IMG/VR virus record: IMGVR_UViG_3300024325_000008
Coordinates: 1-35,423 of that record
Length of the DNA stretch: 35,423 nucleotides
Direction: 5' to 3' (one strand)
Origin: a virus
Lineage: Duplodnaviria > Caudoviricetes
Position numbers and translations under genes: made by a program. The notes beneath the pieces were generated by a model. The model had not been told where the DNA came from. It worked only from the letters and a program-made list of their open reading frames with translations, and ran no database searches. Of this stretch, positions 8,488 to 26,212 are shown in pieces; the first letter of the stretch is position 1; each line of letters opens with the position of its first letter.

Positions 8488-9532
8488 GGCCCTGTATAGA
8501 TGGACCACGCCGAGCGGCCCACAAGAGAATGGGATCGGTCTGCAAGTCCATTAACCGATTGTTGATGCGCTTCAGGTTTGCCTTCGCTTCCGATGCCGAT
8601 TGCATGAGCCCGGTATCCATCTGCTGCCCTTCCCTGAACTCAGGGAATAGCTCGATGGCCAGATTGTCACGCATGAACCGATTGTATCCAGGCGGAAGAG
8701 CGATCGTATCGTTCACCGTGTTGAATCGATTCACCTGTTGCGGATAGTAGAGTGCTCCCTGTAGTCCTGTGCCTGTCGCATTCGGCCAGAGTTTCAGTGA
8801 CCCGAGTGCGCCGGTAAATGTCGGGTTGTAATAGGCGTAGAACGGATACGTCGATGTCAGCGACTTGAGCGGAAGTGAGGCTTCGGCATCTTCAGTCAGC
8901 AATGTCAGTTGCAGCTCAAACGGCACTGAAATATTGGCATTGATCCAGTTCACTTGATTGATGAATTGTGGGCGCACGATGTTCACATCGCCACCGAGTC
9001 CGACCGTATAGACAGCCTGGTTTGGGACCAGATTCCACGTCGTGCGTGTCACCGTATACATCGTCAGACGTTCATTACCACAGACGCTATCCACCCAATC
9101 ATTGAAGCGTTCAAAGGCATCGCTCAGCGAATCGCCACTGGGATCTTCGTTTTCCTGAATGACGTTGATTCGACGCATCGCGGCCTTGATCAGGTTCCTG
9201 ACCGTAATCGATGTGCCTCCAGTCGTAGACGCCAAGGCAGCGGCCTGCTGTGGCGTGAGCGTGCCAATCTGCTTTTCAACGGTGAAGGCACCAGAGCCGA
9301 CAAACTGAAACGTGAGCAGTTCGCCATCTGTCTCTGAGGCTGATGGGTTGTAGCTATAGCCTCCGCGACCATCTGAACTGCAGACGCCACCATTGACCGT
9401 GCCGAGTGTGAGTGTTCCTCCGTCTTGCTTGACATAGACCGTGACACTGCCGGCATAGTCGGCGCCTGTCGAAATCGTGGTGAGCTGCGCCGTGACTCCA
9501 GTCCATGCCGTTGCGCGAATAGGAAAGGCCAT
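8456..9532 (-). CDS. Head-to-tail adaptor (P22 gp4-like) with extra N-terminal beta domain; C-terminus possibly frameshifted
   Basis: TVRNLIKAAMRRINVIQENEDPSGDSLSDAFERFNDWVDS and LPPGYNRFMRDNLAIEL are adaptor motifs, preceded by about 105 aa of Ig-like sequence. Confidence 0.8.
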   Translation of the reverse strand: MAFPIRATAWTGVTAQLTTISTGADYAGSVTVYVKQDGGTLTLGTVNGGVCSSDGRGGYSYNPSASETDGELLTFQFVGSGAFTVEKQIGTLTPQQAAALASTTGGTSITVRNLIKAAMRRINVIQENEDPSGDSLSDAFERFNDWVDSVCGNERLTMYTVTRTTWNLVPNQAVYTVGLGGDVNIVRPQFINQVNWINANISVPFELQLTLLTEDAEASLPLKSLTSTYPFYAYYNPTFTGALGSLKLWPNATGTGLQGALYYPQQVNRFNTVNDTIALPPGYNRFMRDNLAIELFPEFREGQQMDTGLMQSASEAKANLKRINNRLMDLQTDPILLWAARRGPSIQGHEVSGLHWGE

Positions 9533-10566
9533 TATTTAATCCACGGCTGCGGATTGAACGGCACCATCGCGTTCGTCTCCGTATGGAAGGCAATCGGTGG
9601 AGGCGTAATCGTGTCAGTCGGCATCAAGCGAGCGCCTTCTTTCAATCTGAACGTGAATCCTTTCTCTGGCTGCGATCCTCTCAGCATGTCAAGCGTGATC
9701 GGCGCATTGACCTGTGTAGTCTGTGCGAGCGGAAGCGGAATCTTCGCCCCAAGTCTGATACGTGGAGAATCTGGACGATTTCCGGCGAACATATCCGGCG
9801 TCATCTGGACTGGGAATGTCGTCTGTGAATCGGACCAGCCAGTTTTTGGATACGAGAACGCACGATTCCGATCAGGATGGTAGCCCTGCGTCATGTCAAT
9901 CGAGAACTGGACCTGATCTGATGTGAGGAATGTCCCACCTTGATTCTTTGGCGCAAAGGCTCTATTACGGTCAGGCTTGTTCCCAACCATCATGTCGATC
10001 GTGACTGGTGCGAACACTTGCACGAATGTCGGATTCGTGGGGAGATCGATCTTTGGACCGAGCACGGCACGATTGCGATCAGGATGCGACCCGACCACCA
10101 TTTCGACTGAGAAGGCGTCCACTGATGGCAGTATCTGCTGCCCTTGCACTTGCCGCTTGATGATGCGATGCGTAGATGGCTGATAGCCGATGACCTGTTC
10201 GACGCTGAACGGTGTCGTCCCTGACCACGGGAAGAACGATGGTCCTCGACGCGGCGGGAAGCGCAGCGGTGAATCTGGATGATAGCCGATCGTCTGTTCA
10301 ATCGCAGCCGATGTGACATCCGGCTCTCGAGACTGCCAGCCGAGATGAGTAATCTGCGGCACTTTATAGCCGCGATCGGGCTGGTAGCCAGCGGACATCG
10401 ATGAGGTGAATGGCGCATCAACAACGGCTGGAATGTGCAGTGGCAACGGAATGCGTGGCCCAAGCACCTGTCGATTGCGTTCCGGCTGATAGCCAGCAAA
10501 CATCGATGATGTGACAGGAGCTTGGTCATTGACACTTGGGCCAACTGGACGAGCATGTTGACTCAT
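9532..10566 (-). CDS. Pro-rich repeat protein (9 copies of a G-[YSN]-x-P-[DES] repeat), unknown function
   Basis: 344-aa ORF coupled to its neighbours, with regular internal repeats. Confidence 0.8.
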   Translation of the reverse strand: MSQHARPVGPSVNDQAPVTSSMFAGYQPERNRQVLGPRIPLPLHIPAVVDAPFTSSMSAGYQPDRGYKVPQITHLGWQSREPDVTSAAIEQTIGYHPDSPLRFPPRRGPSFFPWSGTTPFSVEQVIGYQPSTHRIIKRQVQGQQILPSVDAFSVEMVVGSHPDRNRAVLGPKIDLPTNPTFVQVFAPVTIDMMVGNKPDRNRAFAPKNQGGTFLTSDQVQFSIDMTQGYHPDRNRAFSYPKTGWSDSQTTFPVQMTPDMFAGNRPDSPRIRLGAKIPLPLAQTTQVNAPITLDMLRGSQPEKGFTFRLKEGARLMPTDTITPPPIAFHTETNAMVPFNPQPWIK

Positions 10567-17135: not shown

Positions 17136-19113
17136 TTAACCCCACACTCTGCACGCGAGACGTGCCTGAAGAGTGGCCGCGCCGATCAGAATGTCCATGC
17201 GATTCGGATTCTGGTCGGTGCCAATCTGATACTGCTCGACATACCGGATCGAGATGCCGAGTGTTTTGTCCTGCACCGCATAGCTATTCGCGCCAGCGCC
17301 AGGCTTCTTCAAGTCAGCCATGACGAAGGCGAAGGCGTCAGGGTGATACACGAAGGACTGCCGCGAAGTCGTCGCCACGAGCGTGCCAGCCGTCTTCGAT
17401 GATGCACCGAGCACCGTGATGCCAGCACCAGAGGCGGGCGAAGCGTCTACGGTCTGCAACTGGCCAGAGGTGATGATGCTGGGAGAAATCGGAAGCGCCG
17501 TCATGTTGCCCGAGCTATCCGAAGTCGTTGCGGTCACCACGAACTGCTGAAGGCGTCCATTGCTCGCATTGGACAGCGGGTTCACGCTGTTGACGCCATC
17601 GAGCACGATGATGTCACCTTTGTTCAGCGTGGTGGAACCAGAAGCCCATGCCTGCGTGTTCAGCGTCGAGCCCGTCTGATTCGCGCCGTTGACGGTCGGT
17701 GTCGCCGTGCTCGTCCACGATCCAGTGGTGTGCGTCGGCGTGACAGGATCCTGATACCACTCGCTGATCCCGAGGTTCATCCCCGAGAACTGACCCTCTT
17801 TCCAAATCTGACTCACGACACCCTGCGGGTTGAAGTTCGTCGTTGTGGTATTGGAGATGGTCTGCATGGCCAGCGGATCGAGACAGGCCACGCGCCCCTT
17901 GAGCGGAGTCGCGAGATCCGTCAGTTTCGTGCCCGCCTGCAGATAGGTCAGCGTGGCGTTGGGCGTCGTGCCTGGCGTGCCGACCGATGAGTAGATGTCG
18001 CGATACACCGCCTGGAAAGCCAAGACTTCCGATGCACTCGCGAGCGCTTCTGCGGCTGGTTTGGTATACCGCTCGCGAATTAACTGAATTTCCGTCGTCG
18101 CCTGAGCGCTCGAGTAGGACGTGGCGACGTTCTTCTGATTCGTCAGCGTGATCGGAACTGTCTGATCGAAGATGTTCTGAACCTGCAGCGCCTGTCCATC
18201 TGTGACAGTGAAGCGCTGTGGCAGACGGGCATTGACGGTGTTTCCGACCACCGCACCGGCCTGCATATACTGGTCGTCATCGAGTAGTGTTCAACAGTGG
18301 TCGCTATCCACTGCCCGCCCTTTCGGGCTGCTGCATGTTTCCATGCAGACCAGACTATATCTTCGTCAGTGCACGAGCACTGATGGGGTGCGCTTCGAGT
18401 CGCTTGACTCTACGGACGTTTCGGTCCTAGTCGTTGCACCTTGCTGGTGAGGACAGATACCGCCATTCATGCGCTTGCCGAAATTGCAGTTCATGCAAAG
18501 CACTTGATGACCTTCAGGGAAGCTGTTTTTCAACAGCCAACGATAAGTCTGCCAGCCAGTCGCGAGCCGAGAACCGAGCGTCTGCCTTCTCCAGTCAGCC
18601 CCATCGTTGTTGATGTGGTCGATAGACAAGAATCTAGGCTCAGTCTCGCCGCAACAGGCACAGACATACCCGCCATATGCCCCAAATACTGCGTCCTTGA
18701 TCCGCTGCTTTTTGGCTTTAACAGCATCGGCCCACGCCTTGTCGCGTGCGTCGGTGCGAAACGTGCGATTCCATTCAGCGGTTTTGTCGCAGTAGCACTG
18801 CTTGCACCAAGAGGAGAAACCGACAGGGCCGGCCTTTCCGCTCTTACGCGGACGCCGATCAGGATGGACATAAAACGCTGTCGTCTCCTTCTCGGTTCCG
18901 CATTTAGTGCAAGTCTTTGTCATTATCCAGCCTTGGCTCAGGATTGCCGGCGGCAACATTACCGTGACGGGTTTCCCTGAGTTCACACCCTTTAACGAAC
19001 GCTTGACTTATAGTTTACGTTCGGTTGACGTTCGACAGGAACGTCAGATCGTTCAGATACCCACGAGCGGTATCTTTTGTGACCCAAGATGGGGTCGCAA
19101 GTGTATTCGGCAT
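17136..19113 (-). CDS. Major capsid protein (P22 coat-like), spliced: exon 1 19113-19017, exon 2 18280-17136; 413 aa
   Basis: Joining ACG T|AT GAC GAC gives MPNTLATPSWVTKDTARGYLNDLTFLSNVNRT-YDDQYMQAGAVVGNTVNARLP, the typical N-terminus of this coat family. C-terminal YHPDAFAFVMADL..PG and RMDILIG...LACR motifs. Confidence 0.93.
18281..19016 (-). ncRNA. Group I self-splicing intron (IA2-like), 736 nt
   Basis: Exon ends in U and intron ends in G. P1 CGAACGU/GCGUUCG (IGS 18996-19002) with U.G wobble; P10 GUCA/UGAC; P3 GGGUGUG/CGCACCC; P4 CUCAGG/CCUGAG; P6a GCUGG/CCAGC; P7 GACUA/UAGUC with AAGAUAUAGUC; P7.1, P7.2, P8 (18366-18383); P9 and P9.1 with GAAA loops; P9.2. Confidence 0.95.
18366..18923 (-). 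CDS. Intron-encoded HNH homing endonuclease (185 aa)
   Basis: KTCTKC..CKQC zinc finger, then CACCGE...LSIDHINNDG...QVLCMNCNFGK; ATG lies in the P6a loop. Confidence 0.88.
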   Translation of the reverse strand: MTKTCTKCGTEKETTAFYVHPDRRPRKSGKAGPVGFSSWCKQCYCDKTAEWNRTFRTDARDKAWADAVKAKKQRIKDAVFGAYGGYVCACCGETEPRFLSIDHINNDGADWRRQTLGSRLATGWQTYRWLLKNSFPEGHQVLCMNCNFGKRMNGGICPHQQGATTRTETSVESSDSKRTPSVLVH

Positions 19114-20936: not shown

Positions 20937-21146
20937 TCAATCACGTTCTGGCCAATGCCAAGTGCTTTCCCCACAGTCGGCATCATGCAAGATACTGAAG
21001 GCACGAAACATCGAATCCGAGTCAAAGACGGTCAAGTCCACCACGACACCTGATTCAACTTTCGTGACCAGCGCCGCCAAATGCTCTGTGGACCCATTCG
21101 GCACATAATGCACGATCCGACCGACACTGACTTTCTGATCGCTCAT
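20937..21146 (-). CDS. Small conserved phage protein (SVGRIVHY...WHWP)
   Basis: Recognisable motif; ATGA overlap with the portal stop. Confidence 0.75.
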   Translation of the reverse strand: MSDQKVSVGRIVHYVPNGSTEHLAALVTKVESGVVVDLTVFDSDSMFRAFSILHDADCGESTWHWPERD

Positions 21147-23515
21147 TGACCGGCTCCTGCTGGTTCTGGCTGTGGGGCTTGTGCCGCCTCTAGCATCGAT
21201 TGAGACGCATCATTGGCTGCGCCCTGTTGTGCCTGTGCAACCGCTTGTGCATGCGCTTGGTCACCTTGCGCCAGTGCGGCTTGATGGTCACCAGAGGCCA
21301 TTGCTGCTTCATGGCCACGGTCTAGCGCGGCTTGCTGGTTGTCATTCCCCTGAATACCCAATCTGGCTCGTTCTTCAAGGAACAGCGAGAGTCGATCGAC
21401 CTTGGCGCCGAGTTCCGCAACCGCCAGTTTCGTTTCATTGTTCTCGCGGTTCCGCTGGGTATCGGCCATCTCCTGCATGGCTGTGACTTTGAGTTTGCCG
21501 GCCTGCTCAACTTGCTTTGTCTGGATGATCTGTCCAGCCGATTGAAGCTGCTGTTTGAGTTGCTGATTCTCTGCCTGCAGTTTCGCCGCCGCCGATGCGG
21601 CATCTTGCTGGTTCTGATTCGCAAGCCACGGCATCGTGTGATTACGGTTTTTTTCAAGCAAGTCCGCGACTGGTTCAGCCCACGGCTCGCCACGCTGCCG
21701 GAAGTATTCCGGCCCGATCACTTGCATCAATTGCGGATCCGCCTGGAGGATGATGGACATCTCTCCGACCGCTTCATCGCGCTTATCCTTATAGGACTTG
21801 CCAATCGTCACTTCGATGCCATAGCGGCCTTTGGTGAGGTCGTAGTGCTTGGCTCCGGTCTGTGGATTGGAGAGCAGTGCATCGGCTCGTGCCTTCTCTT
21901 CGTCAGTCTCATAGGGGAGCGCTTGCGGTCTGCCGTTTGGCCCCATCACGAACGGATGATTGAGCATCACCCACGACGACACGCCTTTGTCATCCAGAAT
22001 CTTCGCGATGCGCTGCGGACGATCATAAATCTTCGGGATCAGATCGAGGATGATCATTGCCTCATACGTCATCGTGATCGAGGCGAAGTTATCGATATAA
22101 GGACTGTTCGCACTGATCGTCTGGCCTTGCAACGCTTCAATAGCTTTGCCTGATCGATGTGCAGGGGTCTGCTCACCACGCGCCGGCCCGTAGGTCGCCA
22201 TCGCCGTCGCCACAAAGTCCTTGCCCATCGTCAGCAATTGCATCGATGGACCGAGGCGGCTCATGTCCACTTGATTGCGCTGTGGTGGAGGCGCGGGCCG
22301 ACCGGAGATGTCTGTCGGCTTGTATTCCAGATAAGGGAAATCCCTGGTATTGGCCATCCCCCATTCTGGATGTCCCTCAAACACACCTTCCACACCAATG
22401 AATGGGGCTCGAGGCTCGAGCGCGGCCATCCTGACGGCATTCGTGGCCGCGTAGTTGGTCAGGCGGATGGCGCCCTTGGCGTTCCCGATCATACCGAGCC
22501 AAGATCGGGTTCCATTCGTGACTTGGAGTTCACGTCCGATCGCGCTGGGGAACGGGATGTATTGGCCGTCCCATTCCACTTCTGGTTCCAGAACTTCCAA
22601 GTAGTTGATGACGCGCCTGAACACATGCCGTTCGTTGACCGTGACCGTCCTCGCATCATCGCCAGTCTTCTTCGTGCGGCCTTCTGGCATATCTTCATCA
22701 TCGAAGGCCATCGAATGATCATCGAGGAGAGATTTCGTGCGCTCGTTCGTCTCGACGCGCCATTCTTCACAGACGGTCACACAGCGATTTTCTTTCGTGC
22801 CTTTGCTCAGCCACTTGTTCGTATCGCTCAGTTCAGAATCGAATGTCTCATCCGTGAATTTGCCGACACGCGACTTCGGATACTTCTTCTTGTAGGCGGC
22901 GAAGGACATCGGCACAGCGATTTGCAACCGCGTCCCGTCTGACCAATCCGGCTGCTGGGCATAGGGATCGCGCTTCACCGTGGACTGATCCAAGATGCGC
23001 TCGATCATCAACTTCTGATCGAGGTCATGCCCACCATATTGGTCGAAGACTTTGTTGATGCGATACGATCCGCGCCCACACCAGAGTGCTCGTTCATAGG
23101 CCCACCCGCGACCTATGTCCGCTCGAGAATCGCGTTCAATGTTCCGATAGAGCCCTTGCAGAATCTGTGCAGTTTCGTCGCTCGCATCATCGCTGATGGG
23201 ATGAATTCGGACGGCCATGTGCGCCTGTCTGAACTGCGCTACTTGGAGCAGGATCGGTTCATCGGCTGAGGCGACCGAGAGCATGGGCCGAGCTGGAACC
23301 GGAACGCTTGAAGGATTCTGCTGAGAGTTCGCTGGGATCGCGGCAAACTGCCCTTTGACTTCGGATGGCCAGGCGCCTTCGGCATGCTGGAATTGCAGCG
23401 CTTCTTGCTCTTGCTGGTCTTGATCGTGTTCGGTGTCACAGACGAAGTGATACCAGTCGATAGAGGCTTGGATCGAGTCATCGGCTTCAACGTCGTCGCC
23501 ATTGTCATCGATCAC
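21143..23515 (-). CDS. Portal protein (P22 gp1-like, with C-terminal helical barrel)
   Basis: 790 aa; RPML, ETAQILQGL.RNIE..S.A, SGKAIEALQ, LIPKIYDRPQRIAKI, YDLTKGRYGIEVTIGKSY..KRDEA; Gln-rich coiled C-terminus. Confidence 0.93.
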   Translation of the reverse strand: MIDDNGDDVEADDSIQASIDWYHFVCDTEHDQDQQEQEALQFQHAEGAWPSEVKGQFAAIPANSQQNPSSVPVPARPMLSVASADEPILLQVAQFRQAHMAVRIHPISDDASDETAQILQGLYRNIERDSRADIGRGWAYERALWCGRGSYRINKVFDQYGGHDLDQKLMIERILDQSTVKRDPYAQQPDWSDGTRLQIAVPMSFAAYKKKYPKSRVGKFTDETFDSELSDTNKWLSKGTKENRCVTVCEEWRVETNERTKSLLDDHSMAFDDEDMPEGRTKKTGDDARTVTVNERHVFRRVINYLEVLEPEVEWDGQYIPFPSAIGRELQVTNGTRSWLGMIGNAKGAIRLTNYAATNAVRMAALEPRAPFIGVEGVFEGHPEWGMANTRDFPYLEYKPTDISGRPAPPPQRNQVDMSRLGPSMQLLTMGKDFVATAMATYGPARGEQTPAHRSGKAIEALQGQTISANSPYIDNFASITMTYEAMIILDLIPKIYDRPQRIAKILDDKGVSSWVMLNHPFVMGPNGRPQALPYETDEEKARADALLSNPQTGAKHYDLTKGRYGIEVTIGKSYKDKRDEAVGEMSIILQADPQLMQVIGPEYFRQRGEPWAEPVADLLEKNRNHTMPWLANQNQQDAASAAAKLQAENQQLKQQLQSAGQIIQTKQVEQAGKLKVTAMQEMADTQRNRENNETKLAVAELGAKVDRLSLFLEERARLGIQGNDNQQAALDRGHEAAMASGDHQAALAQGDQAHAQAVAQAQQGAANDASQSMLEAAQAPQPEPAGAGQ

Positions 23516-23778
23516 TTGGCCAGTTCCTTCGCATAAAAGTCCATCATCTTCGCATGCGGAACGACATCAAGCCCCCATGACGGATCGAGATGATTCGGAT
23601 CTTCACGGTCAGCCTGAGCACGCCAGTCTGAGGCTTCCTGCAGGTATGCGCGAGCGATTTCTGGATTCCCAGGCACCGTCATGAGTGTGGCGCCTTGTGC
23701 GGCTTTGCGGGGAATGTTCTGCTGGTAGGCGAGGTGGGCCGTGCGTGACGAGGCGAGATAATCCGCGATGGCGCTCAT
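23512..23778 (-). CDS. Hypothetical protein
   Basis: ATGA and GTGA overlaps at both ends. Confidence 0.6.
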   Translation of the reverse strand: MSAIADYLASSRTAHLAYQQNIPRKAAQGATLMTVPGNPEIARAYLQEASDWRAQADREDPNHLDPSWGLDVVPHAKMMDFYAKELAK

Positions 23779-24026
23779 TTGCCTTGAAACAGCCAACGGA
23801 GGCGATCCATGAAAGTTCGTGCGCCCCACGCATCAAACGCGGACTGGTGCATCTGTAGTTGTTTCGACTGCTCATCAAGGCGCATGGACATATCGGCCAT
23901 GAACTCGCCTTGCGCCTTCACCTTGGCGGCATGTTCACCGAGAATGCTGGCCGTCGTCTCCTGAAACTTTGCGCGCGAAATCTCCTGCCAACGGAATCCG
24001 CCGTTTGACGTAGGCTGATGTCTCAT
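23775..24026 (-). CDS. Hypothetical coiled-coil protein (ends RLRWLF.G)
   Basis: ATGA overlaps at both ends. Confidence 0.6.
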   Translation of the reverse strand: MRHQPTSNGGFRWQEISRAKFQETTASILGEHAAKVKAQGEFMADMSMRLDEQSKQLQMHQSAFDAWGARTFMDRLRWLFQGK

Positions 24027-24424
24027 GCCCATGTTCTCAACGGAGTGATCAGGCGACTATCGATGAAACGTCCGGCCTTCTTTCCAGTCGTATTCTGATA
24101 TGGCCCTTCAATGATGATCTGAGGCCACAGTTTCTCTGCAGTCACCGTCTCGCCGTGAACGTCCGCAGTCACCGTGAACCATTGCAGATTCCCGGTCGGC
24201 TGATACGTTCTTGGGTTGATGGCATATCGGCCTTCAATCGTAAAGACATCACCTTTCGATAGCGATGTGTAGATCGGTTCAATCTTCGGAGGCGGCGGAA
24301 TGAAGATGGTTCTCTCGCCTGGTTTCCAGAGCAGACGTTCCACATCGATTGCGCCTGTGGCTGCTGCGGCAGCGGCTACTGTTCCGAAGCCGAGGCAACT
24401 AAGGAATGTGCGCCTATCCAGCAT
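24023..24424 (-). CDS. Twin-arginine-signal protein fused to a coat-protein insertion-domain fragment
   Basis: MLDRRTFL plus hydrophobic stretch; residues about 53-111 align with coat residues TTLNKGD...SGQLQTV. Confidence 0.8.
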   Translation of the reverse strand: MLDRRTFLSCLGFGTVAAAAAATGAIDVERLLWKPGERTIFIPPPPKIEPIYTSLSKGDVFTIEGRYAINPRTYQPTGNLQWFTVTADVHGETVTAEKLWPQIIIEGPYQNTTGKKAGRFIDSRLITPLRTWA

Positions 24425-24450
24425 GGTGTCTCATTTAAGGATTGCCGCAC

Positions 24451-24459
24451 AATATAGCA
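24451..24459 (-). promoter_or_regulatory. Candidate extended -10 promoter (TGcTATATT) upstream of the Tat-signal gene
   Basis: AT-rich 65-nt gap in an otherwise overlapping operon. Confidence 0.45.
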
Positions 24460-24489
24460 CATTCATTACCTCTTTGGCGTCATGATGTC

Positions 24490-24750
24490 CTAGATAGGAA
24501 GGCGCAGATCCGGTGTCCCATCAGAGAACTCATAGCGGTCAGTCGAGATGTTATAGCGCGAGACTTCTTGCATCGAACCCTCAAGTGTGGCCGTCTGGAG
24601 TTCCGTGAGCACTTCCAATTTCGCATCAATCTCACGGATGTAGCTGGCGGCATCCTGCACGGCGTGAAAATCGTTCGCCTTCACTTTACTCAATAGATAG
24701 GCGATGAGCCCTGTTTTCTGTTCCTGTAGTTCCTGTCGCGTCATGATCAT
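24490..24750 (-). CDS. Hypothetical protein
   Basis: AGGAG RBS; helical YLLSKVKANDFHAVQDAASYIREIDAK. Confidence 0.7.
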   Translation of the reverse strand: MIMTRQELQEQKTGLIAYLLSKVKANDFHAVQDAASYIREIDAKLEVLTELQTATLEGSMQEVSRYNISTDRYEFSDGTPDLRLPI

Positions 24751-24760
24751 TTTCTCCTAT

Positions 24761-26212
24761 TCATTGCCACATCCATGCATTCGGTGAACTCTCCAGATCG
24801 ACCTGTTGACGATTCGCCGCTTTCCGCGTGTCCCGCTCTAACGAGGTCTGTTGACCGGCACAGAAGTTCAGTTCGATGTTCTCAAGCGCGTGCATGACAT
24901 TGGCGAACTTGTCATCTTCTGCCGGCTGTCGGAGTTCCTTGTTGGCCACCGAAACGAAGTGCGGATCCCATACGTAGCCACCCTCAAAGGCATGATGCAC
25001 GAAGGGCGATTCTCGGTGCTCCTCTCGAGCCGCGATGATGAACCGTTTCGGATTCGTCTCCACACCGATCGATTCCTCGCCTCCGGCATTGCGTCGACGC
25101 AGATAAGCCGAGATGTTCTCGATCATTGCCAGGCGCACATCAGGAGAGTTCCCATTGTCCCGCCACTGCGCGGTGAAGCCATGCCGTCGAAGGATGTCCA
25201 GAGGCGTATAGCGTCTGCTCAGCGTCTGTTGCTGCTCACCCATCGGGGCTGTGCAGGTTTTGAAGACGGCTGATTTTGGGAACCAGTCTTGACGGCACTG
25301 TTTCACGAGCGGAAGGAAGTCCTCAAGGATGAGCGATTCTCCGATCATGCCTCCGAGAATCGCAATCCCTCCGCTATGCATGACCTGAGCGCAGACCCAC
25401 ACCGGCGTGTGCTTGCCAAATTCAAACGATTCTAGAATCGGCAACCGCTCTGAATAGGTGATTGGTCGCCAGTGAATCGCCTTTTGATAGAGCCCATCGT
25501 AGACAGGAACACCCGTGATGTTAGGCCCGCGCTGGCCCATAATCATCGTCAAGTGCTTCGGATGGTCACTCGGATACTGACGCAGCAGCGATTCAATGCT
25601 CTCCTGTGGCAGATGCTTGTTATCGAACACGGAGATGGAATGCACTTTCCGTCCCTTGATCCGATCACCATAGGGGAACTCACGCGACAGCCAGAACTCG
25701 TAGTCTGACGGATTCGCCACGAAGGTGAGCTGGAACGGATACCGATCATTGCGAAGTGTCGCCGTGAGATTCGGTCTGAGCCGGCCACGCAGTTCAGCGG
25801 CCACAGAGGGGCGCACTTCTTCGACCTGATCACCCATGATGCGCGAGACACCGAGGCCGCGAATCTTGTTGTATTCCTCGATCAGCGAATTTGCTTTCAG
25901 ACCAAAGGCGTAGGCGCTTGAGCCATTCGGCAGGACATAGCGTTTCTCTTTCGATTCCCATGACGTTTGCACGCCGCGAATCGCGCAGAGTTCATCAAAG
26001 GCGACTCGCAGTTTCGTGGTGGTCGCATCTTCGGTCCAGCGAAAAAGCAGGATTGGGATGCCTGGATATTTCAGGAGCGCTTCGATCTCCTTGTCGAGTG
26101 CCAGTGTCGTTTTCGCACAATTCAGGCTTCCCTCAATCAAAATTTCGGGGGTTCTCCAGTCGGCCCGTATACGCTGATGAATCGGCATGCCTTCCCAATC
26201 GAGTTCAGCCAC
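24761..26212 (-). CDS. terL: Terminase large subunit with deviant catalytic motifs
   Basis: ILIEGSLNCAKTT (Walker A-like), LPNGS, IRGLGVSRIMGDQVEE (Walker B-like), ELRGRLR, VANP, DNKHLP; C-domain ESFEFG and ANVMHALEN; upstream of the portal. Confidence 0.85.
   Translation of the reverse strand: MAELDWEGMPIHQRIRADWRTPEILIEGSLNCAKTTLALDKEIEALLKYPGIPILLFRWTEDATTTKLRVAFDELCAIRGVQTSWESKEKRYVLPNGSSAYAFGLKANSLIEEYNKIRGLGVSRIMGDQVEEVRPSVAAELRGRLRPNLTATLRNDRYPFQLTFVANPSDYEFWLSREFPYGDRIKGRKVHSISVFDNKHLPQESIESLLRQYPSDHPKHLTMIMGQRGPNITGVPVYDGLYQKAIHWRPITYSERLPILESFEFGKHTPVWVCAQVMHSGGIAILGGMIGESLILEDFLPLVKQCRQDWFPKSAVFKTCTAPMGEQQQTLSRRYTPLDILRRHGFTAQWRDNGNSPDVRLAMIENISAYLRRRNAGGEESIGVETNPKRFIIAAREEHRESPFVHHAFEGGYVWDPHFVSVANKELRQPAEDDKFANVMHALENIELNFCAGQQTSLERDTRKAANRQQVDLESSPNAWMWQ

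Follow-up and report, generated by a model that had tools for sequence, protein, structure and literature searches.

A phage gene pairing a Tat-like leader with a truncated coat I-domain, from a large family with exchangeable cargos: a candidate bait for capsid-sensing immunity

Why would a P22-like phage carry, among its head genes, a small protein that joins a twin-arginine-like leader to a piece of coat protein? The question is raised by a 133-aa ORF in the DNA analysed here (the window, a stretch of 35,423 nucleotides whose record is 95% complete by tool estimate), the minus strand of which carries the terminase, portal, scaffold and coat genes. An earlier note on this DNA had described the ORF as a Tat-signal protein bearing an isolated coat insertion domain, and an ORF with the motifs that it quoted is present (Table 1). 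Judged from its sequence and relatives, the gene is real, under selection and a member of a large undescribed class. Its function we infer: the product is a candidate Tat-targeted bait for capsid-sensing immunity, a reading that we favour tentatively and rate at somewhat less than an even chance.

Table 1. Features of the 133-aa ORF, its neighbours and the matching coat segment in the window.
Feature	Position	Strand	Evidence or remark
133-aa ORF: Tat-like leader, linker and truncated coat I-domain	24023..24424	-	between terminase and portal
RRTFL motif (R4, R5) and 21-residue uncharged stretch, residues 1-26; predicted Tat signal or signal anchor	24347..24424	-	invariant residues, features
DxERLLWxPGxxTIFxP linker, residues 27-43, the mark of the family	24296..24346	-	conserved across homologs
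C-terminal two thirds of a P22-type coat I-domain, residues 49-132	24029..24280	-	BLASTP, Pfam, AlphaFold, Foldseek, fold search, profile comparison
Conserved block with extended -10-like TGCTATATT (24451-24459)	24427..24461	-	identical in L071; kept in L243-L247
11-nt repeat, upstream copy, duplicating the start of the downstream 85-aa gene	24424..24434	-	10/11 in the window, 11/11 in L071
11-nt repeat, downstream copy; ORF stop codon overlaps the ATG of the next gene	24016..24026	-	sequence
Terminase large subunit, upstream neighbour of the ORF	24761..26212	-	context
85-aa gene, downstream of the ORF	23775..24032	-	directly after the promoter-like element in L243 and L246
P22-like portal, downstream neighbour of the ORF	21143..23515	-	Pfam PF16510, E 5e-83
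Own P22-type coat, exon 2: segment matching the cargo I-domain	17454..17633	-	BLASTP, Pfam, PHROGs

The proposal that the cargo is a diverged coat I-domain held up in sequence, profile and fold comparisons. BLASTP aligned query residues 53-110 with the coat ORF of the window at 24 of 61 identical positions (39%, E 2e-9 for the pair). Pfam P22_CoatProtein (PF11651, model positions 266-314) matched residues 53-104 of the ORF with an E-value of 2.3e-4, under its curated cut-off, and matched 8 of 26 homologs with an I-domain cargo at E<=0.05; in PHROGs, the coat family was the only match for the 133-aa protein. Profile-profile comparison of the 26 homologs with 14 coats gave a probability of 99.5% over 65 columns. 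An AlphaFold model of the ORF, built from the 26 homologs, reached a pLDDT of about 90 across residues 51-130, and the structural search with it, a check that the earlier note had proposed, placed P22-like coats first. Among 48,161 solved chains, the best five fold matches were CUS-3, Sf6 and P22 coats or I-domains (Z 6.4-4.8, 71-84 aligned; rmsd 2.8-3.3 for four and 7.6 for one), and the next row stood at Z 3.1. Foldseek returned the same order, with the CUS-3 I-domain first at E 3.7e-3 and no row below 1e-3. ESM Atlas matches were all under 0.9. Complex prediction for cargo residues 44-133 with the coat of the relative L071, which is 99% identical to the window's own, gave a score of 0.02, to which we attach no weight either way.

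The matched region begins at residue 261 of P22 and 255-256 of CUS-3. In P22 the I-domain spans residues 222-345 and the D-loop residues 239-254 (PMC9965877). Since the match begins after the D-loop, the cargo is best described as a truncated I-domain from which the D-loop part is absent. It does not make up a complete six-stranded barrel with D-loop and is not inserted in an HK97-fold coat core, but sits in a stand-alone 133-aa ORF.

The earlier note had also held that the cargo is not a recent duplication of the phage's own coat, and the tree and the coat ranking bear this out. In a tree of the shared segment, built from 69 columns without coat L022, one branch parts 37 cargos from 13 coats with support of 97/73, although the bootstrap had not converged. 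For the window cargo, the L071 coat ranks third, and the coats of two other phages score higher. A recent origin from the own coat is ruled out by this split and ranking together with the comparison of L071 described below. Cargo and capsid go together by class. Across 50 virus records, the cargo class was that of the own capsid in 16 of 16 typed records, some of them near-copies. All 11 records with a P22-type cargo (E<0.01) had a P22-type coat and none had the second class, whereas the 10 with a second-class cargo had no P22-type coat; five of these carried a full second-class protein and the other five, which are 25-42% complete, had neither coat type. Inside a class the correspondence is less strict: the best of 14 coats is the phage's own in five of eight loci.

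The cargo is kept by selection and, apparently, exchanged. L071 is 95% identical to the window in terminase, 97% in portal and 99% in coat. Between the two, dS is 0.22 for the leader and 0.2-0.8 for most neighbouring genes (1.2 for one small gene), while the cargos are 60% identical with a dS of 1.48 and a dN/dS of 0.22. Cargo dN/dS was 0.08-0.22 in six of seven pairs; the seventh, a distant pair with a non-capsid cargo, had 0.96. In three pairs cargo dS was three to six times leader dS; all of these values are rough, as the segments are short. With dN/dS this low and cargo dS far above leader dS, the rates indicate that capsid-type cargos are under purifying selection and that the cargo appears to have been swapped behind a constant leader between close relatives. 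The earlier note had named homologs without the arginine pair, or in neutral decay, as evidence that would count against it; the pair is found in all 26 homologs, and the low dN/dS in six of seven pairs speaks against decay.

The gene is an optional accessory gene. It is absent from the terminase-portal slot in all five further terminase relatives (L243-L247, of which three and two are near-copies), and the leader occurs in 3 of 28 records chosen by the second capsid class. Upstream of the gene, TGCTATATT is the sole TGnTATAnT in the window, where 0.84 would be expected by chance, and a sigma-70 scan of the window did not have it among its predictions. Upstream of the TGTGCTATATT element the DNA of L071 has no relation to that of the window; identity sets in precisely with the element. 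The earlier note had read this TGcTATATT element as the gene's own promoter. The element is there and is conserved in relatives, but its assignment to the gene has to be given up: TG(C/T)TATATTGTGCGG is kept in L243-L247 (5/5), all without the 133-aa gene, where it is followed by the 85-aa gene or by one for a small membrane protein. The element thus belongs to the slot, and from this arrangement the 133-aa gene is an insertion behind the element and ahead of the head genes, with the flanking 11-nt repeat as the likely insertion junction. A family-wide promoter motif was rejected, since TGnTAnnnT lay within 70 nt of 5 of the 88 leader genes, where 3.9 were expected. Between 16000 and 27000 we found no minus-strand terminator-like site, so the ORF is likely co-transcribed with portal, scaffold and coat.

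Other features of the region deserve mention. The small genes at 23775-24032 and 23512-23829 are coupled to the portal start and kept in 6/6 close relatives checked. The gene directly after the terminase (24490-24750 in the window; matching slot in L071, L243 and L244) varies between relatives, which makes the terminase-portal gap a hot spot for small accessory genes. The coat gene of the window is interrupted by a 736-nt insert (18281-19016, minus strand) that holds an HNH endonuclease ORF (18366-18986); exon 1 occupies 19113-19017 and exon 2 begins at 18280. The last letter of the exon is T and that of the insert G, the pattern of group I introns; Rfam gave no match at gathering score anywhere in the window, this insert included, and the L071 coat gene is uninterrupted. 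The last 84 coat codons (17139-17390, minus strand) show zero differences from L071 while the rest of the coat has a dS of about 0.3-0.4, which suggests recent recombination. Elsewhere, a 344-aa proline-rich ORF (9532-10566, minus strand) contains repeated G(Y/S/N)(Q/H/K/R)P(D/E)R-like motifs and has no PHROG match.

The earlier note had seen a single member of what homology searches reveal as a family, whose leader carries several kinds of interchangeable cargo, the I-domain among them. Searching with the full 133-aa protein gave 33 matches among 142 candidates: 26 full-length homologs with an I-domain cargo (query included) and 7 that share the first 45 residues only. A leader profile built from 18 sequences matched 3,455 clusters (50% identity) at E<=1e-3 and 584 at E<=1e-10. 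The best 150 matches measure 56-238 aa (median 98), and neither among these nor among the best 120 did the leader occur on a full-length coat. No match to the family was found in 50,697 cultured phage records; L095, the sole match in named genomes, was rejected because it lacks both RR and leader.

We then removed the leader from 305 unique proteins and scored the remainder against profiles of the head genes in the fetched loci. In this set, which is enriched by the queries used, 171 cargos were assigned: 113 to the P22-type coat, 49 to a second major head protein (phrog_14242), 4 to a third head protein, 4 to the portal and 1 to a head-tail adaptor, leaving 134 without assignment. Shuffled or reversed control cargos gave 0/305 matches. 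Among the best 150 representatives chosen by the leader alone, 63 cargos were assigned, 86 were not and one was too short. A Walker-A-like GxxGGGK[ST] motif occurs in 6 of 235 proteins, one of which matches a terminase PHROG. P22-coat-type pieces are for the most part drawn from three regions, namely N-arm, I-domain and C-terminal strands; the N-arm is commonest (51 matches on the P22 model), 40 I-domain cargos fall in one cluster, and some cargos are two joined pieces or mini-coats without the middle (L074, L051, L080, L247). None of the cargos approaches the leader in conservation. Where a head gene was identified, the leader gene lay on the same strand as the head genes in 32 of 39 loci, near-duplicates counted. 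Ten loci (L007, L023, L028, L031, L040, L055, L059, L074, L084, L092) have two leader genes, often in tandem with different cargos. The leader profile does not cover the whole class: the close terminase relative L247 encodes a mini-coat with an RR leader but without the DxERLLW linker (L247:606-1301).

Is the leader a Tat signal? Its features, and the company that it keeps, agree with the Tat-like prediction of the earlier note. R4, R5, F7 and L8 are invariant in the 26 homologs; across 235 leader proteins, a set chosen with an RR-containing profile, RR is present in all and RRxF[LIFMV] in 216. A DNA pattern for the linker alone, which does not require RR, gave 15 matches, and RRxF lay upstream in all 14 that could be parsed. 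The 21 uncharged residues of the window leader have a mean hydropathy of 1.57, and 156 of the 235 family members have an uncharged stretch of 13 or more residues, which we take to be the relevant threshold. In 180/235 an AxA lies no more than 9 residues from the linker, in a stretch that is rich in alanine. PF10518 and TIGR01409 did not match the window leader, and TIGR02811 scored 15-18 bits on the ORF, below its cut-off of 48; TIGR01409 matched 8 of 18 leaders at E<=0.05.

The neighbourhood of phage tatA genes adds to this. Seven viral loci carry a tatA-like gene, and a leader gene lies within about 3 kb in six of them, directly adjacent in four; among tatA-like loci found without using the leader, 4 of 5 have one nearby, two of these being near-copies. 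Phage TatA is encoded beside leader genes at L236:1492-1647, L237:1438-1647, L249, L250, L251 and L253. Because phage tatA adjoins leader genes in this way, engagement of the host Tat system by the family leader is well supported, although indirectly so and less firmly for the 133-aa protein itself. The leader genes beside tatA carry cargos without a recognisable capsid piece. In the other direction, tatA was found in 2 of 50 leader-bearing records and in 0 of 31 comparison records (one of which has the leader), and none was found in the window.

Fusion architecture, cargo homology, accessory status, purifying selection and cargo exchange form the first step of the bait reading. In the second, the gene would be transcribed with the head genes, and the bait would for that reason be present when the real triggers are present. 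The leader would then engage the host Tat system at TatBC, a well-supported step. The cargo fragment may bind a capsid sensor without switching it on, and the sensor complex could finally be tethered at the Tat translocase or leave the cytoplasm by Tat hitchhiking. In the portions of the sources available to us, capsid sensing is described for CapRel and Thoeris and terminase or portal sensing for Avs (PMC13728456, PMC12578639, 10.1101/2025.06.06.658234), Tat export of bound partners without signals is established (PMC4273604), and Tat tolerates small unfolded passengers (PMC13673990). The cargos derive from these same classes that bacterial immunity senses, capsid, portal and terminase, which counts for a bait.

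Several points count against it. Thoeris needs two parts of the capsid protein together, E-loop and P-loop (PMC12578639), and in one screen capsid triggers had to oligomerise (PMC13728456); binding by small pieces may therefore be poor. Conversely, a piece that binds the sensor might also trigger it. A decoy should track the coat of its own phage, yet the cargo is 39% identical to it and two other coats score higher. About half of the cargos are without assignment, tatA-linked leaders are without a capsid piece, the window is without tatA, and many leaders are short. We know of no sensor of the coat I-domain.

A wider version of the bait reading is possible but doubtful: soil- or sediment-type phages of several capsid classes would maintain a modular library in which one Tat leader carries exchangeable pieces of their own head proteins, capturing capsid, portal and terminase sensors that are then removed by Tat hitchhiker export, with some phages adding a TatA of their own. 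If this were true, each cargo would mark an epitope recognised by a bacterial immune system.

An alternative that we regard as unlikely, though worth taking seriously, is that the protein poisons assembly in rival phages or satellites, the anchored fragment trapping their coat, scaffold or capsid-hijacking proteins while its divergence spares the producer. This would suit the prevalence of N-arm cargos, as the coat N-arm binds scaffold in P22 (PMC9965877), as well as the closer relation of the window cargo to coats other than its own and the existence of mini-coats without middle domains (L051, L080, L247). However, since the gene precedes the head genes and no terminator was found, its product would be expressed alongside the own coat, and the own coat is the best match in 5/8 loci. 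The I-domain cargo is also without the D-loop, which makes inter-capsomer contacts (PMC5701804). Nor is lysogenic expression indicated, since no integrase was found among the ORFs scanned in this 95% complete record.

It is rather improbable that the leader does the work by itself, by occupying or jamming TatBC, by membrane stress or by a late change of host export, with the cargo as stuffer drawn from nearby head genes. Such a role would account for the conservation of the leader over any cargo and for the 134 of 305 cargos without assignment; short leaders may bind TatC without transport, Tat fusions that expose hydrophobic regions stall and are harmful to growth (PMC13673990), and phage tatA neighbours point to an interest in Tat itself. 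Against it, the capsid-type cargos are under purifying selection, recur from the same few segments, keep a predicted fold and match the own capsid class.

The earlier note had offered a tether of procapsids to the membrane as one function, and an aid to the phage's own head assembly, whether as membrane anchor, nucleation point or coat folding helper, would agree with the head-gene neighbourhood, the shared strand in 32/39 loci and the match between cargo and capsid class. The absence of the gene from 5/5 terminase relatives and 25/28 second-class records weakens the idea, as do the exchange of the cargo while the coat stays 99% identical (L071) and the many unrelated segments used as cargo. 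A tether for the own procapsid fits poorly with a gene that is optional and a cargo that can be swapped, and we consider an assembly aid of any kind quite improbable.

A periplasmic or surface role after export, in which the protein blocks superinfecting phages or shields progeny, seems to us improbable to a like degree. A genuine Tat substrate ends on the outer side, and in P22 structures the I-domain points outwards from the capsid; incoming capsids, however, remain outside the cell, and N-arm, portal and Walker-A pieces have their place inside the virion or in the cytoplasm. Neutral debris left by illegitimate recombination, to which the one non-capsid pair with a dN/dS of 0.96 might point, is largely refuted by the selection signal in the other 6/7 pairs (0.08-0.22), by the 40 I-domain cargos of one cluster, by intact frames and by the size of the family, and is very improbable.

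The bait reading bears on the open question of how phages evade the sensing of their structural proteins, for which escape by mutation is not easy. Thousands of genes showing capsid-, portal- and terminase-like pieces behind one leader would amount to a new form of counter-defence or of phage-phage interference, and would show phages using the Tat pathway, their own TatA included. The cargos would at once supply candidate sensed epitopes, as well as baits for pulling down sensors. Should the decoy reading prove wrong, an architecture that we found described nowhere in the literature searched (open-licence PMC and bioRxiv) would still need explanation.

The earlier note knew of no described system of this kind, and none was found in the main texts of that literature. 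In the available text of a 2026 Tat review, 'phage' occurs four times, at least once concerning SlyD and phiX174; in the main text of EVADES (10.1101/2025.06.06.658234), as available, 'capsid' and 'twin-arginine' each occur 0 times. PADLOC 2.0 (library of 2023) matched 0/26 members at E<=0.01, and no anti-defence homology was found in Pfam, PHROGs or NCBIfam, which are general libraries rather than anti-defence-specific ones. Phage anti-defence proteins such as sponges, antitoxin or DNA mimics and Tad (10.1101/2025.06.06.658234, PMC13728456) are likewise small, optional and exchanged, and bind a defence component as we propose here; none of those described in the available portions of these sources is a virion-protein fragment or carries a Tat leader.

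Among known Tat systems, hitchhiker export comes close, exemplified by HybOC and PaoABC (PMC4273604). Typical Tat signal peptides (TIGR01409, PF10518) share with the family an N-terminal RRxFL, an uncharged stretch and a small passenger, whereas the family is phage-encoded, continues into the DxERLLWxPG..TIFxP linker and has virion fragments as passengers. Prophages and satellites interfere with virion assembly through Tab, PICI Cpm/Ppi, P4 Sid and PLE TcaP, which resemble the leader-cargo proteins as small accessory proteins acting on head or tail assembly; unlike them, these are to our knowledge not membrane-targeted capsid pieces. Finally, the I-domains of the P22, Sf6 and CUS-3 coats (PF11651; PDB 2M5S, 6MNT, 8SKG) are like the cargo in sequence and predicted fold over about 75 residues. 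The cargo differs from them in standing alone behind a leader, without the first strands and the D-loop, and in forming a diverged lineage of its own.
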